The notes under the pieces: model-generated
The model's database searches: none
The model's input: the letters and a program-made list of their open reading frames with translations, nothing else
What the model was told of the DNA's origin: nothing
Program-made: the position numbers and the translations under genes
Virus record (IMG/VR): IMGVR_UViG_3300006052_000013
Strand: one strand, 5' to 3'
Source: a virus
DNA: 45,764 nt
Shown here: positions 1,284-13,920 of the stretch, in pieces
How the letters are laid out: each line of letters starts with the position of its first letter
Position numbering within the stretch: position 1 is the first letter of the stretch

Positions 1284-1892
1284 TTAAAGTGACTCCCCCA
1301 AGATTTCCGCCAACCGCGGCGGTTGGTAATTAGGACCCTTGCCGCCGACTCCCACCTTCTGGCCATACTTCATTCCCGGAACATTCGATATGGTAGGAAC
1401 GGCCTTGGTCATGTTCGAGCGATGAATCTCGCGGAACACCGCGTCGAATGGGATCGACCAGGCGATCGCCCCGGTTACCAGGGCATTAAACATCGTTCGA
1501 AGACAGATTTCTACTCGATCCAAAGATTCTGGGTCCTCCGGATTGGTACTCATGATCGCCTCATGCACGACACATGAAAGAGTCCCGAGTTGTGCAGACA
1601 AAATATGTATGAGATGGCCCGCGGGAAACATCTCAAAAACATTTGCCGTTCCCCGGTTCATTCCGTAGGCGATCAGCGTTCCCATGATAACATACCCCAG
1701 GTCCCCCATCGCATCCGCGATTTCAAGGCGGTCATCGGCGAGGGTCGCCGCGGCCAACTCTCCCAATTCTTCGGTAATCAACCGAAGACGTAACAGTACC
1801 ACCGTGATGGGAATCGGCCCGCGGTCAGATCGCCGAAATTGATTGTACTTATCCTGAAATTCTTTCAAAAGGTCTTCATAGGATTGATGCAT
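1284..1892 (-). CDS. MazG-like all-alpha nucleoside triphosphate pyrophosphohydrolase
   Basis: LITEELGELAAA...EIADAMGDLGYVIMG acidic-helix motifs. Start reset to the ATG after AAAAAGGAGAAAGAC. Confidence 0.6.
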   Translation of the reverse strand: MHQSYEDLLKEFQDKYNQFRRSDRGPIPITVVLLRLRLITEELGELAAATLADDRLEIADAMGDLGYVIMGTLIAYGMNRGTANVFEMFPAGHLIHILSAQLGTLSCVVHEAIMSTNPEDPESLDRVEICLRTMFNALVTGAIAWSIPFDAVFREIHRSNMTKAVPTISNVPGMKYGQKVGVGGKGPNYQPPRLAEILGESL

Positions 1893-2338
1893 GTCTTTCT
1901 CCTTTTTTGGATTTCCTCCCACAAAATATGAAAGGCCTTGCCCTCGTAGATGGGAAAAGAACTGGTACGGTCGAGATAAATGTTCTCGTCGGCATTACAC
2001 CAGTTCGCCGCCTGAACCCCGGTAAAGATCATCGTGTTCCATCGCCTTAACCGAGTCTGGTGGAAAAAGATGATGTAGAATGACCCCGAACCATGGTAGT
2101 CGGACTTTGCCACAAAACGGAATTGCGGCCCCGGCCAACCCAAGAGTTTTCGCAAGTTAAAGGGATGTGGTTTGAGGTACTTCTCATACTTAACCTCCAC
2201 CCACATGGTAGTATGGCCTCCGACGACTGCCATATCTGGTATGCCGATGGTTGACTGGTCCGATAACTTGGTAATCTCACCCCGGTTTAACGGGGTAAGA
2301 TATGTTACCAAGTCGGCCGTGATCTTGGCCTCATTCAT
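1865..2338 (-). CDS. PD-(D/E)xK nuclease-fold protein (VRR-NUC-like)
   Basis: GIPDMAVV...MWVEVK fits the PD...(D/E)xK pattern. Confidence 0.45.
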   Translation of the reverse strand: MNEAKITADLVTYLTPLNRGEITKLSDQSTIGIPDMAVVGGHTTMWVEVKYEKYLKPHPFNLRKLLGWPGPQFRFVAKSDYHGSGSFYIIFFHQTRLRRWNTMIFTGVQAANWCNADENIYLDRTSSFPIYEGKAFHILWEEIQKRRKTCINPMKTF

Positions 2339-2882: not shown

Positions 2883-3257
2883 TTATAAGGCAGCCGCCGC
2901 CGGTCGCCTTATTGGTATTGGTACGTTTCTTTTCCTTCCTCTTGTAGAGGTGCCATAATGAGGCGTTGTTTCGCCCAACTCTTTGAGAGATGCAGATGTT
3001 TTTAATTTGATACGATCGTCGTCATGGGTCCATCCAGTAAATCTGGAAAGCATCGTTCTAACGTCGTTCATACACACAGCATTCATGTTGCCCCAAAGAA
3101 TTCGAAAGCGAAGTTGACCATCTACAATCGTTTTATCAAAAATTTGACGATTATCCCGTTGCAATTCTTCAATTTCATCCCACCATTTCATCGCCAGTTC
3201 TTCATTGACATCTAATTCGCAATGTACAACAATCGCTAGTTTATCTTTTCCTCTCAC
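2883..3257 (-). CDS. hypothetical protein
   Basis: Start set to the GTG after GAAGGAGG, giving a GTGA overlap with the polymerase stop. Confidence 0.5.
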   Translation of the reverse strand: MRGKDKLAIVVHCELDVNEELAMKWWDEIEELQRDNRQIFDKTIVDGQLRFRILWGNMNAVCMNDVRTMLSRFTGWTHDDDRIKLKTSASLKELGETTPHYGTSTRGRKRNVPIPIRRPAAAAL

Positions 3258-5146
3258 TTTGCCTCCTTCCAATTCGCCCCGGTCTTTGCTTCCCAGAGAA
3301 TTGGAATTCTGAAATTGAAGTCCTGGGTGTTCAGCAACTCGTCCATATTTTTCAGATTCACTGGATCAGGGTCCTGATCACCATCAAACTCATCGTGAAC
3401 TACGAAACGCTCCGTATAATTTAACACCTTTCGCTCGCGGTGAACGATAAAAATTTTCTTTTTCATTACGTCGGCCGCGGTACCCTGGAGGATACGGTTG
3501 AGTGCCGAGTGCGGCTTATAGGCAATCTCCTCCATCAATCTGATCTTGGGGTCCTGACTGGATGGCTTCGTGAATTTCGCCCGCCGTCCCATAAAGGTCT
3601 TTACCCATCCTCGGTTCTCCGCCAGTTTTGTGGCCTGCCGAAGTAGCCTTCCCGCCTCGGGAAACTCGCTTTCGTAAGCATCGACGAACTTATCCGAGAT
3701 GCTTTGCAAAATGCCCAGTTGCAGGGCGATCTTCACCCGTCCGGCCCCGTACACCTTGGAAAAATTGATGGTCTTGGCCGGTTGCCGGTCGAAGTCCGGA
3801 ATCACGAGACGAATCAGGTCCCGAACCATATCATGAAAATCGACCCGCGGATTATCCCCGTATGCCTTATTTAGCTTTGGGGAATTGGCGTAGTGGGCAA
3901 ATAAGCGAAATTCAATCTGTGCCGCGTCGGCGCAGAGCCAAACTTTTCCGGGGGAGGGAATAAATAGTTCCCGGATTAACCAGTCGGGTCCCACGTCTCG
4001 AATCTGATCCTTAGTCCGCATGATCTGTTGGATATTGGCGCCGGGGATACCCTCGCCCGGACTGGCGGAAGAAAAGCGGCCACTGACCGTGCCCTTGTCA
4101 TCATTATTCGCCCGGAGTTGGTGCAGACTATACCGAAGAATATTTTTGTCATCCAGGGCCTTGAGATACTTCTTCAAATACTTAGACAATAATGAGGCGA
4201 TACGACGTGCCTTGACCGCAATTTGAATCTCGGGATTCGGAAGTTTGGCCAGATAGTCTCCCTCAAAACTATCCTGGCCCTTGTCGGTCCGGGGCGGGTC
4301 TATTCCCAAATAACGAAACATTCTTGACATGTCGGTGGAAGCATCGGGATTGACCCGGAATCCGACCCGTCGGTACAGTTCCATAATCAATTTATGGTAG
4401 GCGGCCTCGGCCTCCCGGACCCAACGCTCCAACTTAGGCCGGTCGATGAGCGCGCCGTTCCGTTCCATTGTGACCACGGCAAAAATGATGGAATCTTCCA
4501 AGTCAAGTACTTTATCCAGGTCATCTGACTTGATTGAATTTTTCAGTTTGCTTTCGATTCCATACCGCATTGCCATATCGAGTTGATAGACCCGTTGGGC
4601 ATCTATCTCGGCGTATGGCCCGACCATCGCGGCCGGCATATCGGCAATTTGGGACTTGTCATTTTTCCCGAGTTCCTGATCCTTTCCCACGATGCCCAGG
4701 ACGTCATTACACAAAATCTCTAAATTGAACTTGCGCCGGTATTCATCCAATAATGCCGCCTGGTAAGATACGTCATGGCACCGGTTACCGAGGGCCTCCA
4801 GATCAATACCCCAGTTATGAGTGACGTGGGTATCATACTTGGCATTTAACCAGGATATATCCTTGTCTCGGATTTCGCGTTCAAACCAGCGTTTTACCAG
4901 GCGTTCATCGAGGTTCCCTCCCCCGGCGTGACCAAAGGGAAGATACCATTTGTTTCCATCCTCCGTGTAAAAACTGTAACCCACGGGGCGGGCCGTGAAG
5001 GGATTCTTACTGGTGGCCTCGGAATCGGCCCACAACCACTTATACTTGCTCAGGTCGGGGAGAGACGGGGCGGTCCATTTCACGCCGTCCGATCTTTCCG
5101 CAAACCGAGCAAACATGTTTCCCGGCCTTACCGTGGGTAACTTCAT
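3254..5146 (-). CDS. family A (Pol I-type) DNA polymerase with 3'-5' exonuclease domain
   Basis: ADSEAT (Exo I), DAAQIEFRLFAHYA (motif A), PAKTINFSKVYGAG (motif B), VVHDEF (motif C). Start at MKLPTV forms an ATGA overlap with the upstream stop. Confidence 0.9.
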   Translation of the reverse strand: MKLPTVRPGNMFARFAERSDGVKWTAPSLPDLSKYKWLWADSEATSKNPFTARPVGYSFYTEDGNKWYLPFGHAGGGNLDERLVKRWFEREIRDKDISWLNAKYDTHVTHNWGIDLEALGNRCHDVSYQAALLDEYRRKFNLEILCNDVLGIVGKDQELGKNDKSQIADMPAAMVGPYAEIDAQRVYQLDMAMRYGIESKLKNSIKSDDLDKVLDLEDSIIFAVVTMERNGALIDRPKLERWVREAEAAYHKLIMELYRRVGFRVNPDASTDMSRMFRYLGIDPPRTDKGQDSFEGDYLAKLPNPEIQIAVKARRIASLLSKYLKKYLKALDDKNILRYSLHQLRANNDDKGTVSGRFSSASPGEGIPGANIQQIMRTKDQIRDVGPDWLIRELFIPSPGKVWLCADAAQIEFRLFAHYANSPKLNKAYGDNPRVDFHDMVRDLIRLVIPDFDRQPAKTINFSKVYGAGRVKIALQLGILQSISDKFVDAYESEFPEAGRLLRQATKLAENRGWVKTFMGRRAKFTKPSSQDPKIRLMEEIAYKPHSALNRILQGTAADVMKKKIFIVHRERKVLNYTERFVVHDEFDGDQDPDPVNLKNMDELLNTQDFNFRIPILWEAKTGANWKEAK

Positions 5147-5727
5147 AGAATCGAGTCTTTGCAAGGATACAAATAAAAACAAGCACTATCAATTACTTCC
5201 GTGGCATCTTTTAATGGATCGTGAAAAGCATTGGTAAGAATTCCACCGTTCTCTCTAACCCACAGGGTGTTTCCAATTCTCAATTGCCGGACGTTGTCCG
5301 GAGTCATTGAATGCTTTGGAAAAGATAAAAGAACCAAACCCCGGCGATCTCCGGGGTAATCTTCCAAAGCCACGATTCTTTTAATCGGCGTGTTGACTAT
5401 AGACTTTGCACAATTGAAACATGGAAAATTTGTGCAGTACATCGTCCAGGCTAAGTCTAGGCGATGACACGTAAGAATCGCATTTTGTTCTGCGTGCGTT
5501 GCCCAACAGGCCGTGTTTTCATTGCCAGAATCTCCGGGGGTTCGTTCCCCGGTGCAGGGGCTTCCTTCTGTTCCACAATGCGGTACACCCGAGCCAATTC
5601 CATTATATCCAGAAGATAGGATGGCCCCTCGAAGATCGGTGATAATGGCCCCGGTCTTTCGCCGGACACACGTGGCCCGTTCGGCCACCAATCGAAGGTG
5701 CCGAGTCCAGTATTGATCTATGTTCAT
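5143..5727 (-). CDS. dCMP deaminase
   Basis: HAEQNAI and PCFNCAKSI zinc-binding motifs; ATGA overlaps at both ends. Confidence 0.85.
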   Translation of the reverse strand: MNIDQYWTRHLRLVAERATCVRRKTGAIITDLRGAILSSGYNGIGSGVPHCGTEGSPCTGERTPGDSGNENTACWATHAEQNAILTCHRLDLAWTMYCTNFPCFNCAKSIVNTPIKRIVALEDYPGDRRGLVLLSFPKHSMTPDNVRQLRIGNTLWVRENGGILTNAFHDPLKDATEVIDSACFYLYPCKDSIL

Positions 5728-6557
5728 TTTCTCTCCTTCAAGATTGCAAGACACTTGTCGCTGCTTCCGGAGTGCAAGGCATCGGCGTATGCTTGCCAGG
5801 ATTTTGGCAAATTGGCAATATTGTGTAAAGTAAATTGGGCGTAGTCACGATATCCCAGATCGGGTAACCGCGGACTAATGACCATTTCCCCGGCCGGCGC
5901 CAACGCACAAGCGGCCGCCTCTTCCCAGTTATTTTGGTACAGGTGGGAAGAACCGAGATTCAAAACCAGGCTTCCGGGTTCTATTTTTAACTGCCCCGCC
6001 AGGCCATTAATAATCTGGCAAAAATTGAACACGTCGTGGGGAATTCCCAACCAGGCGTCGCTGGAACGCATATTAAAAATTCCATGTAGGTATTTGTCCC
6101 GAATCAAAAACTGACATGAAATTGTGCATGGAATATCTTTGGATCGACTTGGCATCGGGGTCCATATCGTTGCCACGGCCTGACGTGAGGATTCGTCGTG
6201 TTCTAATTGATGCAGAACGTAGTCCCATTGTTTGTGCAAGCGTGGCCCGTAGGCCCCGGCGAACACCCGGCCGTCATCCGAGTACTTGCAAATTTGCGAA
6301 TTGTACAGGGCCACGGTACCCACGTCTTCCCGGCCCGCGACGATCCATAGCCATTCTGCCAACATAAAGCGGTAGTTCAATTTTCTCATTGGAATATTCA
6401 TCACATTCCGGCGCACGTCGGAGATACCCAGACGAACTCCGATGAGTTCCTTGGTCATCATTTTGACTCGGCCAATCTCTACCATTTTGCCGCGGGTCAA
6501 AATCTCGTGTAACAGTAGGGGGTACAATTGATCGATGCTCGGCGCATTTATTTCCAT
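5724..6557 (-). CDS. ThyA-fold pyrimidine C5-modifying enzyme, predicted dCMP hydroxymethylase or dCMP methylase
   Basis: DIPCTISCQF (catalytic Cys region), MRSSDAWLGIPHDVFNF (RSxD..LG.P, with Asp where ThyA has Asn in PFNI), GSSHLY. Confidence 0.75.
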   Translation of the reverse strand: MEINAPSIDQLYPLLLHEILTRGKMVEIGRVKMMTKELIGVRLGISDVRRNVMNIPMRKLNYRFMLAEWLWIVAGREDVGTVALYNSQICKYSDDGRVFAGAYGPRLHKQWDYVLHQLEHDESSRQAVATIWTPMPSRSKDIPCTISCQFLIRDKYLHGIFNMRSSDAWLGIPHDVFNFCQIINGLAGQLKIEPGSLVLNLGSSHLYQNNWEEAAACALAPAGEMVISPRLPDLGYRDYAQFTLHNIANLPKSWQAYADALHSGSSDKCLAILKERK

Positions 6558-7462
6558 TTGAATTCCCTCACCTCTCTAAGTTTGTTGACAAATTCTGACC
6601 GGCGCTTTTGATGAAACCGGAAGAAACAGGCCGGGCGCATCAAGGATACAAAAGGTATGTCGGCCTTCCGGCAGGCCTCCTGGGCACTTTCTCCGAAGGC
6701 CAGGGCCACGGTCACTCCTCTCAGACGATCTGAGACCTGCCGAATATCCCGCGCATTTCCCTTGCGCGAAAATGTGTTGGTAAACATCAACTCATCTTCG
6801 TGATAGCCCGCCTCCCACAGGGCCTCGTTCAAGAATCGCGACGAATTTTTGGAATTGAAGAAAGGAAAATCTGTCTCGGTCCCATTGGTTCGTTCACCAA
6901 TTATCAGAAATCGGGCCGAGGGACATCCGATGGCCCAGGCCGGAAACGTTTCTTTGTTCATATCTCCCGACTTGAAATAATTCAGATACCAATTTTCAAT
7001 AGATATCTGAGTGTAGTCGAAGGTATGGTGGTAGGCCGATAGTCCCATAAACCGATGGTAACAATCTTTGAACTTACTCGCACTGCGCAGATAATCGTCC
7101 CCGGCCTCAAATTTCTTTTTCCAGTTCTGATAACATATCTCCCACGGCGGAGCGGCGATCACACACCTCACCGCCTGCGACCGGAATACCCGCCGGAACA
7201 TACGCATGCCGTAATAACCAACCCGATCATTATTCCGGGCGATGGGACCATAGATCATTTCCCCCAGATGAAACCGGTCAAAGACCACCGGCGATCGGCT
7301 ATGCATGGCCTTCCATAACTTTGCGGCGTAGTACTCGATCATGTCACCCTCGGCCGGCGGTGGTCCCTCATGAAAATATCTGAATCCCTTTTTAACAAGA
7401 TAGTTACACAAAGTCGTTTTTCCGGCGCCGTCCGGACCCTCAATAATCAATACTGGTGGCAT
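6548..7462 (-). CDS. P-loop dNMP/thymidylate-kinase-like domain fused to a UDG-superfamily-like domain
   Basis: N-terminus: IEGPDGAGKTT and DRF. C-terminus: FLIIGERTNGTETDFPFFNSKNSSRFLNEAL...FTN...ALAFGESA...LMRP, colinear with the family-4 UDG motifs GExPG..PF..G..L, N and HP. Confidence 0.55.
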   Translation of the reverse strand: MPPVLIIEGPDGAGKTTLCNYLVKKGFRYFHEGPPPAEGDMIEYYAAKLWKAMHSRSPVVFDRFHLGEMIYGPIARNNDRVGYYGMRMFRRVFRSQAVRCVIAAPPWEICYQNWKKKFEAGDDYLRSASKFKDCYHRFMGLSAYHHTFDYTQISIENWYLNYFKSGDMNKETFPAWAIGCPSARFLIIGERTNGTETDFPFFNSKNSSRFLNEALWEAGYHEDELMFTNTFSRKGNARDIRQVSDRLRGVTVALAFGESAQEACRKADIPFVSLMRPACFFRFHQKRRSEFVNKLREVREFKWK

Positions 7463-7711
7463 TTACTTATCCTCCTGTGTATGACATATACAAGGACAGT
7501 CTAATTTTGTACACATTTTATGTATGTGCGGGGGATTTTCTTTTTTACAACGAAAACTAAGTTTACCTTGGTAACCACCTTTTCCGCGTGGATTCGCAAC
7601 GCTGGGCAGTTTTGGACCCTGCTCACCCGGGGCATTCCCCTGGTACTTACCCCTTTTCGATGATCGCATATGCGCCAACATAGCAAAGTCTGTTTTAATT
7701 TCTTTGGTCAT
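7463..7711 (-). CDS. small basic Cys-rich protein
   Basis: Overlaps the helicase stop; C-terminal CTKLDCPCICH. Confidence 0.45.
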   Translation of the reverse strand: MTKEIKTDFAMLAHMRSSKRGKYQGNAPGEQGPKLPSVANPRGKGGYQGKLSFRCKKENPPHIHKMCTKLDCPCICHTQEDK

Positions 7712-9216: not shown

Positions 9217-9382
9217 CGTCGATTCCCTTGGCCTTTGCCTGGATGTTTCCTTGAATTTTGGTAAGGCATATTTGGCATATACAAAAAACGTGTTCCCAGC
9301 CCTTTAACTTGAACTCACCCACCAGGCCGGGATTCCCGCATTGTCCACAATATCCGAGAAATGTCCGCATGTGTTCAAGCAT
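9200..9382 (-). CDS. small Zn-ribbon protein
   Basis: CGQC...CICQIC; fills the gap between coupled neighbours. Confidence 0.4.
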   Translation of the reverse strand: MLEHMRTFLGYCGQCGNPGLVGEFKLKGWEHVFCICQICLTKIQGNIQAKAKGIDDVSGT

Positions 9383-9936
9383 CAGAATCCTCCTTCGGTT
9401 CTCACCGGCCGATCTTTCATATACATCTCGATCATTTCAATTGGCCGAGGTTTATACGTTTTGGGGAAAGACCCGATCACGGCGTCCATCCCGACGTCAC
9501 AAGTCCGTTGGCTCATGGGATAGATCAATTTTGATCCGTGGCAGTGACCATGCAAAAGCCACGATCCCCGGCGATCTCCGTCCCATGAAATATGCGGATA
9601 ATGAGAAAGGCAGATTTTGTGATGGTTCCATTTCAATTCGTGGTAATCTTTTACCCACTCAAAAGGAAGGTCTTTGATTCGTTCGGAATGATCGTGGTTT
9701 CCCCGGACTAAATGAACGCGGCCATTCAAAAGGCTCATCACATCACGACGTGTCTCGGGAGTTGAATCAAAAAACATGTCTCCTAGGACATAAACGTCAT
9801 CTATGGGCCGGACGGTTTCGTTCCACAAAGTAACAAGGCCTGAGTTCATTTCTTCGGCCGTCTTCCAAGGTCGATTGCAAAACCCGATGATCTTCTCGTG
9901 GAAGAAATGCGGGTCGCTGTAAAAGAAAATCGACAT
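9382..9936 (-). CDS. calcineurin-like metallophosphoesterase
   Basis: YSDPHFFH, VLGDMFF, VRGNHDH, LHGHCHG. Start reset to the ATG (MSIFFY). Confidence 0.8.
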   Translation of the reverse strand: MSIFFYSDPHFFHEKIIGFCNRPWKTAEEMNSGLVTLWNETVRPIDDVYVLGDMFFDSTPETRRDVMSLLNGRVHLVRGNHDHSERIKDLPFEWVKDYHELKWNHHKICLSHYPHISWDGDRRGSWLLHGHCHGSKLIYPMSQRTCDVGMDAVIGSFPKTYKPRPIEMIEMYMKDRPVRTEGGF

Positions 9937-9938
9937 GT

Positions 9939-10055
9939 TTACCCCCAAAAGTTAGAGTTTGGATTCTTTAAAATAAAAACCAATAGTGCAAGCGCCACGG
10001 CCAACAACACCGCCGACAAAGTGAACGTCAAAACATCATCATAAAATTGTCCCAT
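9939..10055 (-). CDS. small membrane peptide (38 aa)
   Basis: MGQFYDDVLTFTLSAVLLAVALALLVFILKNPNSNFWG; one TM helix; stop lies 2 nt before the next ATG. Confidence 0.3.
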   Translation of the reverse strand: MGQFYDDVLTFTLSAVLLAVALALLVFILKNPNSNFWG

Positions 10056-13212: not shown

Positions 13213-13920
13213 TCACCTCCCCAACTTCAAATTGTCGATCTGCCGGGACTCGGGTACGATATCGTCATACAAGAGTGGAATCCTTTGTTGAAATTCTTTC
13301 AATAACGGAATCGTGATCTGCCGCATTTGCGGATGGGCCTCTTTGGAAGTACGCATCAAAAAGAAATGCCGCCAACTGCGCAAATTTGCCGTGGTCACGA
13401 TACGCGAGGCCAGGGCATTGGGAAACACGCTCCGGGCCTCCTGCGGACGCCAACCTTTTTTGAGTAACGCGCAATACATATTTTCACAGTTTTGAATTAT
13501 CCATAACCAGTCCCGATTGTATTGACAGAGAGGAAAACCCGGACGATGGTGTATTCCGGATACGGTGGGTTCATCTCCCGTCCGGCAATATTCGCAATCA
13601 ACTCCCGGTATGGGGTAGATAAAGGCCGGCGGCATCTTCTTCTCATAATTGACAAACCTGGTACTCTCCTGGGTATAGGAGGCGAGTCGATGCCGTACCC
13701 ATTCGTGGGTTATACCCCGGTCCATCACGGCATCCACCGAGGCGGTGACGTGTTCTACCACTGACCAATCGCCATGGTCCATGACCACCGTTTTAATAAA
13801 CCGTTCGGTGTTAGGCGAAGCATCCTCCGATCGATGACTGATCCGGGCACACCACTCGATGTGCCGGAGTGGCTCCGGGGTCAGTACCATGATTTTAGCG
13901 TAGGGTTGAATTATTTTCAT
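13213..13920 (-). CDS. thyX: FAD-dependent thymidylate synthase ThyX
   Basis: ThyX signature RHRLASYTQESTRF (RHRxxSxxxxSxR). Confidence 0.9.
   Translation of the reverse strand: MKIIQPYAKIMVLTPEPLRHIEWCARISHRSEDASPNTERFIKTVVMDHGDWSVVEHVTASVDAVMDRGITHEWVRHRLASYTQESTRFVNYEKKMPPAFIYPIPGVDCEYCRTGDEPTVSGIHHRPGFPLCQYNRDWLWIIQNCENMYCALLKKGWRPQEARSVFPNALASRIVTTANLRSWRHFFLMRTSKEAHPQMRQITIPLLKEFQQRIPLLYDDIVPESRQIDNLKLGR

Follow-up and report, generated by a model that had tools for sequence, protein, structure and literature searches.

A phage protein joining a YorR-like nucleotide kinase to a uracil-DNA glycosylase fold, encoded beside a predicted 5-hydroxymethyl-dCMP synthase

The pathways by which phages modify their DNA supply new enzymology and tools for epigenetic sequencing, and escape from restriction depends on them. 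It has been reported that type-IV uracil-DNA glycosylase (UDG) domains fused to the A-family DNA polymerases (PolA) of SPO1- and SP15-like phages excise deoxyuridine (dU) ahead of the polymerase, which was shown for YerA41 and phiLo; such fusions belong to phages with modified pyrimidines, and N4-like polymerases carry dead copies of the domain (bioRxiv 10.1101/2025.03.26.645540). In other phages, YorR-like 'nucleotide kinases' (RB69p045, DLP3 gp78 and RL38J1_214) are encoded beside cytosine-specific homologues of thymidylate synthase (TS), and the T4-type deoxynucleoside monophosphate (dNMP) kinase of RB69 was shown to phosphorylate 5-hydroxy-deoxycytidine monophosphate (5-hydroxy-dCMP) (PMC13326640). 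Here, we describe a gene in which a kinase of the second kind and a domain related to the first are joined. It lies in the IMG/VR virus record IMGVR_UViG_3300006052_000013, a stretch of 45,764 nucleotides referred to below as the window, at positions 6548..7462 of the minus strand (stop codon included), and encodes 304 residues. Taken as a whole, the evidence is best explained, with a probability of about 0.45, by a protein with two functions in a phage pathway that substitutes 5-hydroxymethylcytosine, or a derivative of it, for cytosine.

The preliminary description of this gene, made from the letters of the sequence, had taken residues 1-170 for a thymidylate kinase (TMPK) or dNMP kinase and the rest for a degenerate UDG-fold domain. 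The fusion proved to be real, the motifs quoted are all present where they had been placed, and the kinase assignment was supported. The open reading frame (ORF) encodes a protein found in identical form on six contigs from independent samples and different assemblers. In its N-terminal half (residues 1-168, 6959..7462; all window features given below are likewise on the minus strand), PHROG 761 'thymidylate kinase' matches residues 1-156 (E 7e-13), and a profile made from an alignment of 56 homologues (A1) matches YorR of the SPbeta prophage (2axp/3kb2) over its whole length (E 6.8e-10) and RB69p045 over about 100 residues including DR...VYG (probability 93%). A profile was needed, since a single-sequence phmmer search against the PDB gave only P-loop matches and spurious annexin matches. 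The Walker A or P-loop motif GPDGAGKT (residues 9-16, 7415..7438), with a TMPK-type Asp11, is invariant in the 56 homologues, as are E8, D11, K15, D62 and R63. The window's EGPDGAGKTT has the TMPK form E-G-x-D-G-x-G-K-T-T and is followed by DRF (residues 62-64, 7271..7279), the equivalent of TMPK DR(Y/F/H), which aligns to the DR of YorR and RB69p045. Among the window ORFs, a classic Walker A was otherwise found in a UvrD helicase only.

That this half is a nucleotide kinase is very probable, and its sequence places it in the YorR-like branch of the TMPK-like kinases, matched over the full length in sequence and also in structure, rather than with the T4 gp1 type or the DNA kinases acting on 5-hydroxymethyluracil (5-HMUDKs). 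No sequence similarity to T4 gp1 (1dek) was detected. With the YorR-like phage kinases and SPbeta YorR it shares the fold, the P-loop GPD.AGKTT and DR...VYG, and with the phage kinases also the genomic association with a TS homologue of the N177D type (E. coli ThyA numbering); unlike the fusion, all of these are single-domain proteins of about 170-180 residues. In thymidylate kinases, the P-loop Asp contacts the free 3'-OH of the mononucleotide, and the invariant Asp11 therefore argues for a free dNMP as the substrate.

The C-terminal half (residues 176-304, 6551..6937) is a compact domain that practically certainly has the UDG-superfamily fold. Pfam UDG PF03167 matches residues 179-295 just under its cutoff (E 4.7e-5, 23.9 bits versus 24.3), and is matched individually by 32 of the 56 homologues at E<=1e-3, with a best value of 1.4e-9. 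A profile of this domain alone (A2) matches the Thermus family-4 UDG 1ui0 (E 2.9e-6) in an alignment that spans every motif, and it also matches UdgX (about 4e-4). An AlphaFold2 model computed on alignment A1 has a mean predicted local distance difference test score (pLDDT) of 95.5 and a predicted template-modelling score (pTM) of 0.92, which implies a fixed arrangement of the two domains. When this model was compared with the PDB by Foldseek, as the preliminary description had suggested, UdgX (E 3e-6, probability 1.00), family-4 and family-5 UDGs, and kinases of the YorR, TMPK and dNK groups were recovered, so that the UDG-superfamily relationship stands in both profile and structure. The domain has an alpha/beta fold with a four-stranded parallel sheet that can be superposed on solved UDGs, and motif A, with Glu190 as its water-activating or polar residue, follows strand 1.

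Equivalences to the Thermus enzyme (Tth UDGA) follow from the coordinates of the profile alignment, a hidden Markov model (HMM) alignment to 1ui0, and the roles of the aligned residues in Tth UDGA are established for family 4. Motif A falls in FLIIGERTNG (residues 185-194, 6881..6910), where Glu190 corresponds to the motif-A acid Glu41 and is Glu in 47 and Asp in 7 of the 56 homologues. Phe201 of PFF (residues 200-202, 6857..6865) corresponds to Phe54, which stacks on the base (Phe in 54/56), and Asn229 of the FTN motif (6776..6778) to Asn80, which recognizes uracil (Asn in 54/56). Motif B falls in RPACFFRF (residues 276-283, 6614..6637); here Arg282 corresponds to the family-4 wedge Arg161 (Arg in 54/56), and Arg276 stands at the position of His155. 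This histidine is present in 53 of the 56 homologues, and the window protein is the only one with Arg. The family motif B, HP(Q/S/A)(Y/F)WKR, aligns to HPAYLLR of 1ui0, and in the RPACFFR of the window the wedge Arg is kept while the His is lost. The family motif A is GE(Q/R/K)(P/A/G)N, as against GE(A/G)PG in canonical family 4; the window protein has GE followed by RTN, with Thr192 at the place of a Pro that only 24 of the 56 homologues possess. The nearly invariant Asp198 is specific to the family. Thus, the word 'degenerate' in the preliminary description holds in part: GERTN and RP are indeed found in the window protein, but the family keeps the motif-B His in 53/56 and the acid in 54/56, so the term fits the window lineage and not the family.

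Two defining features of family 4 are absent, namely the Fe-S cysteines and the GE(A/G)PG motif. The domain has no conserved Cys column and a median of one Cys, and therefore no Fe-S cluster, and it comprises about 130 residues, whereas the family-4 enzymes (Thermus UDGA 1ui0 and Thermotoga 1l9g/1vk2) have about 200 residues and a four-Cys cluster. In comparison with UdgX (6ail), the loop bearing the cross-linking His is missing. The most fitting description is that of a new side branch of the family-4/UdgX lineage, confined to viruses and lacking the Fe-S cluster; it forms a subfamily of more than 1,000 sequence clusters.

In the window protein, Arg276 is encoded by CGC, one transition from CAC, and P0002, a homologue 78% identical to the window protein, keeps the His. 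An assembly error was excluded as its cause by the identical protein on the six contigs. Both halves of the fusion are under comparable constraint (mean pairwise identity 39% in the UDG half and 42% in the kinase half) and co-diverge (r = 0.60). In two full-length fusions of the alignment, P0008 and P0026, the Phe, the Asn and the motif-B His are all gone and the domain is kept, a pattern that looks like correlated inactivation of the pocket. Judged from these sequences, the family behaves as though it had one functional pocket, usually kept and occasionally lost while the domain stays. A 318-residue member of the kinase family at another locus (L041:6920-7876, plus strand) has a C-terminal region resembling a decayed UDG-like remnant, which starts ...VIGN..SPQVLI..., lacks GE, PFF, the Asn and HP, and gives no match to the domain HMM.

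A search for the same architecture, also suggested at the outset, showed that the fusion is common in environmental phages. A word-indexed search returned 73 homologues, some 55 of them full-length fusions and the others proteins of about 170 residues with the kinase only. When the UDG-domain profile was run by HMMER against 1.84 billion cluster representatives, 2,260 matches were obtained at E<=1e-3 and 1,066 at E<=1e-10. Among the best 150 of the 2,260, about 137 are 280-330 residues long with the domain at about 165-305, and no complete stand-alone form of this UDG subfamily was seen; about a dozen matches are shorter, and the seven retrieved all carry the tail of the kinase domain and are N-truncated fusions. 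In 85 loci, comprising the window, 4 loci from cultured phages or metagenomic contigs and 80 from IMG/VR, the fusion is present in 69 and the kinase alone in 16, with a separate ORF of this UDG subfamily in none. The fusion is, therefore, apparently obligate. Cultured phages that encode it are Stenotrophomonas phage AXL3 (gp29), Pseudoxanthomonas phage PW916, Bacillus phage G (gp315) and Actinomycetia phage DSL-LC01, in which it is labelled 'thymidylate kinase' or left unannotated, and BFVD contains full-length structural twins (query template-modelling score, TMq, 0.75-0.78) with uninformative names. In practice, hundreds of 'thymidylate kinase' annotations are incomplete. A cellular or prophage origin was rejected: in a scan of one genome for each of 185,579 prokaryotic species, only four matches, weak and confined to the P-loop, were among those listed, and the family accordingly looks virus-restricted. 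A megablast search of the region against cultured phages gave no match, and relatives are seen at the protein level only. The architecture is well supported and widespread, and in open-access papers and bioRxiv texts no description of a kinase-UDG fusion was found, the nearest accounts being those of the PolA-UDG fusions and of the 5-hydroxycytosine pathway, in keeping with the preliminary description, which had been aware of none.

The genomic setting links the fusion to cytosine chemistry. The gene has the ribosome-binding site AGGAGG, its start codon abuts the stop codon of an upstream 82-residue ORF, and its last 10 nucleotides overlap the start of the translationally coupled downstream gene, which encodes a TS homologue (5724..6557). 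Such a homologue lies directly downstream, usually overlapping, in 67 of the 69 fusion loci, with dCMP deaminase, PolA and a MazG-type pyrophosphatase as further frequent neighbours. The window TS homologue is closest to the CMP 5-hydroxymethylase MilA, its best PDB match (E 3.5e-25), and true thymidylate synthases match it at only about 1e-13. In an experimentally grounded study from 2026, N177D (E. coli ThyA numbering) was found to denote a dCMP substrate, L143D/E a non-methyl, hydroxymethyl-type product, and D169N the 5-hydroxy-dCMP synthases (PMC13326640). Asp occupies position 177 in all 75 adjacent TS homologues, and the signature D,C,D,D at L143/C146/D169/N177 is present in 72 of the 75, including that of the window, which thus combines the catalytic Cys, N177D, L143D/E and a retained D169 as in dCMP hydroxymethylases. 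Two controls behaved as expected, with Asn at 177 in M6 gp58, a dUMP hydroxymethylase, and Asn at 169 in RB69 gp48, a 5-hydroxy-dCMP synthase. On the basis of the MilA similarity and this signature, the window TS homologue is predicted to make 5-hydroxymethyl-dCMP (5-hm-dCMP), in agreement with the earlier suggestion of a dCMP-modifying neighbour. The TS homologues beside the kinases of DLP3, RB69 and RL38J1 make 5-hydroxy-dCMP (D169N), whereas Asp169 is kept here. At a further locus, the TS homologue beside the fusion (L028:7861-9225, plus strand) has 454 residues, carries an extra domain and shows the signature V,C,D,D with Val at L143; instead of hydroxymethylating dCMP, it may methylate it.

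The window also encodes ThyX (13213..13920; Pfam PF02511, E 1.4e-39), by which dTMP could be made with no need of the TS homologue, leaving the latter free for cytosine chemistry. This bears on the reading of the gene as an ordinary thymidylate kinase with an unimportant C-terminal extension, which agrees with the annotations in AXL3, phage G and DSL-LC01 and with a Pfam Thymidylate_kin match (PF02223) at the P-loop. That match lies below its cutoff (25.7 bits versus 27) and covers only 19 residues (7-25), the coupled gene encodes a cytosine-type TS homologue and not ThyX, and the supposed extension is a confidently folded, conserved UDG domain, which already contradicts the 'unimportant' part; the chance that this reading is correct is minimal. 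AXL3 carries the same module together with ThyX and a MazG-type enzyme. Of 37 restriction enzymes tried on its DNA, 35 fail to cut, among them every one with G/C in its site, and cleavage is confined to sites made of A/T alone (PMC7504290), a pattern that fits modified cytosine and normal thymine. The window toolkit (ThyX, a cytosine-type TS homologue, MazG/PRA-PH and dCMP deaminase) is the same as that of AXL3.

The pathway favoured here can be outlined as follows. A MazG-type pyrophosphatase and the TS homologue would convert dCTP and dCMP to 5-hm-dCMP, as suggested by their families and context, and the YorR/TMPK-like domain would then phosphorylate 5-hm-dCMP to the diphosphate; this nucleotide is probably, though by no means assuredly, the main substrate of the kinase. 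The most economical reading is that the fusion, although it comes from a different and unrelated kinase lineage, supplies the step performed by the dNMP kinase T4 gp1, its proposed function likewise being to phosphorylate 5-substituted dCMP from a phage TS homologue, so that the 5-modified dCMP kinase step may be carried out by YorR-like enzymes instead of the gp1 type. The host NDP kinase and the phage PolA would next place the modified base in DNA. The C-terminal domain, as a minimal Fe-S-free descendant of the family-4 UDGs, would act at the DNA level, where conserved residues and precedent suggest that a uracil-like base is flipped into a pocket formed by Glu190, Phe201, Asn229 and, in most relatives, the motif-B His, with Arg282 serving as the wedge. 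In most family members the flipped base would probably be excised, removing dU that enters phage DNA in a manner akin to the UDG domains attached to the SPO1- and SP15-like polymerases. A reason for such uracil surveillance may be that the phage dCMP deaminase and the pyrophosphatase route raise the dUMP/dUTP pool. In the window protein, the changes of His to Arg and Pro to Thr probably weaken or alter catalysis and leave binding intact.

This reading builds on features established above: there are two folds with conserved residues, they occur in an obligate fusion, and the gene is linked to that of a cytosine-type TS homologue. An active or base-binding, glycosylase-type function in most of the family is further argued for by the retention of the acid, Phe, Asn, His and wedge Arg, by a constraint on the UDG-like domain comparable to that on the kinase, and by the precedent of the PolA-fused type-IV UDG domains. 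The PolA of the window (3254..5182; PF00476 on the called gene) carries no UDG domain; the operon that encodes it also encodes the UDG-like domain. In comparison with the known PolA-fused domains (SPO1, SP15/YerA41/phiLo and N4-like), the partner here is a nucleotide kinase and not a polymerase, and the modification is predicted on cytosine rather than thymine. Judged from the residues, the proposal that DNA glycosylase activity on a uracil-like base is present in most of the family is a tentative one, falling somewhat short of even odds, and activity of the window protein itself appears less probable than that. If the domain is active, it would extend the theme of modified-base phages building uracil surveillance into their replication or nucleotide machinery; if it is inactive, a repair fold would have been reused for metabolism.

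Several observations weigh against the outlined pathway. The window protein is missing both the motif-B His and the motif-A Pro, the domain is without the Fe-S lobe and about 60 residues of the canonical family-4 enzymes, its net charge is only mildly positive, and no more than three residues underlie the predicted product of the TS homologue. In RB69, the 5-modified dCMP kinase step is done by the T4-type dNMP kinase (PMC13326640). The lack of a stand-alone form among the best 150 matches is unlike a generic repair UDG and points to a kinase-dependent function, and a simple repair role is also countered by the rigid predicted packing of the two domains, by translational coupling to a metabolic enzyme, and by persistence of the domain in members whose pocket residues are lost. 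Moreover, a separate UDG, which was expected near the kinase-only relatives beside the same TS homologue, was not found within +/-7 kb of them.

Given the apparently obligate fusion, the rigid predicted packing, the coupling and the members without pocket residues, a role that is non-catalytic or depends on the kinase is well conceivable. In the non-catalytic case, the old base pocket would bind a free pyrimidine nucleotide, for regulation or to pass substrate between the TS homologue and the kinase, or it would bind DNA or the polymerase and so tether modified-nucleotide synthesis to the replication fork like the T4 dNTP-synthetase complex. The same four features agree with this, the domain being retained in P0008 and P0026 without Phe, Asn and His and in the window protein without His, and there are precedents in the catalytically dead UDG domains of N4-like polymerases and in the crystallization of UdgX with free dUMP (6ajp). 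What speaks against it is that the motif-A acid (54/56), the motif-B His (53/56) and the wedge Arg (54/56) are kept, which simple tethering does not need, and that dead UDG domains elsewhere lose their catalytic or intercalating residues. A non-catalytic domain is somewhat unlikely.

Also to be considered is that the UDG fold has here given rise to a functional class of its own, one that needs the attached kinase for its activity and does not repair uracil. Such a module may read or excise unmodified cytosine or a 5-substituted pyrimidine and so enforce complete replacement of the base, or it may be a DNA- or polymerase-docking device that couples the synthesis of modified dNTPs to the replication fork. 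This proposal is unlikely, but if true, in either form, it would add a seventh family to the UDGs, one restricted to viruses and serving the production of modified genomes and not repair. A glycosylase active on a target other than uracil, either unmodified cytosine (in host DNA or as misincorporated C) or the 5-hydroxymethyluracil or thymine that arises from deamination of 5-hydroxymethylcytosine (5-hmC) or 5-methylcytosine, seems quite improbable, since 54 of 56 homologues keep the equivalent of the Asn by which families 1 and 4 specify uracil, and engineered cytosine excision in UNG is known to need a change of this Asn to Asp.

A different possibility is that the protein is a DNA-base kinase like 5-HMUDK, in which the UDG-like domain flips 5-hmC or 5-hydroxymethyluracil out of DNA and hypermodification begins with phosphorylation of the hydroxymethyl group by the kinase. 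The 5-HMUDKs are likewise P-loop kinases of phage base-modification clusters, encoded near TS homologues, the joining of a base-flipping fold to a kinase is suggestive, and the DNA of AXL3 is heavily modified. However, 5-HMUDK acts on DNA and has an HMUDK_hel domain, whereas the fusion gives no match to HMUDK_hel (PF18723) at E<=1, and an hhalign comparison with M6 gp54 covers the P-loop only (23 residues). In addition, a separate HMUDK_hel gene is present alongside kinase-only homologues, there is no variation at the TMPK-type P-loop Asp, the residue in contact with the free 3'-OH of a mononucleotide, and neither aGPT-Pplase nor other transferase genes are among the most frequent neighbour families. 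The absence of HMUDK_hel, the alignment restricted to the P-loop and the coexisting HMUDK gene led to rejection of the 5-HMUDK assignment, and the DNA-base kinase reading as a whole is very improbable.

The HMUDK_hel domain is a marker of the DNA kinases for 5-hydroxymethyldeoxyuridine. At one locus, a gene with this Pfam domain (L003:7336-8133, plus strand) is situated between a cytosine-type TS homologue with Asp at N177 and a dCMP deaminase, and such a gene was seen in one more kinase-only locus and in one fusion locus when neighbourhoods of +/-7 kb were scanned in 15 kinase-only loci (A3) and 14 fusion loci (A4). The L003 arrangement could point to a DNA kinase for 5-hydroxymethylcytosine, with cytosine hypermodified by the route known for thymidine. 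In the same scans, dUTPase (PF00692 or PF08761) accounts for at least 5 genes in the 15 kinase-only loci, a small sample, while no dUTPase family with at least two members is among the families listed for the 14 fusion loci; these small numbers hint that dUTPase and the UDG-like domain may be alternative ways to exclude uracil. Genes for class-I S-adenosylmethionine-dependent methyltransferases recur near the MazG/fusion/TS cluster, both in AXL3 (L001, 4602-5426) and in 5 of the 14 fusion loci, and C5-cytosine DNA methylase genes occur in 5 of the 14 fusion loci and 7 of the 15 kinase-only loci. The methylases are odd for phages predicted to replace cytosine and may belong to further modification chemistry. 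The fusion marks a large group of such environmental phages, as well as at least one therapeutic candidate (AXL3).

The rest of the window is a phage genome segment with nearly all genes on the minus strand, including PolA, helicases, an archaeo-eukaryotic primase (AEP), ThyX, a sigma factor and an RNA ligase. Downstream of the TS homologue, the next gene encodes a dCMP deaminase (5143..5754; Pfam PF00383, E 7.5e-15; PHROG 174, E 1e-34), followed by PolA, and this gene order with PolA is shared by AXL3, DSL-LC01 and most IMG/VR loci. A MazG/PRA-PH-type NTP pyrophosphohydrolase (1284..1922; Pfam PF01503, E 2.9e-10), the candidate dCTPase of the pathway, has homologues in 37 of the 85 loci. The 82-residue ORF directly upstream of the fusion (7463-7711, minus strand) is basic and rich in Cys and His, ends with ...CTKLDCPCICHTQEDK, and is called as a gene on the independent contigs L085 and L086; it has no Pfam or PHROG match and could be a small product of this operon that binds zinc. 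Two calcineurin-like metallophosphoesterases (9382-9948 and 20914-21519, both minus strand) and an RNA ligase with a T4 Rnl1-like PHROG (22670-23818, minus strand) are encoded in the replication/early region; these enzymes may process nucleic-acid ends or take part in repair, perhaps on the products of abasic sites.

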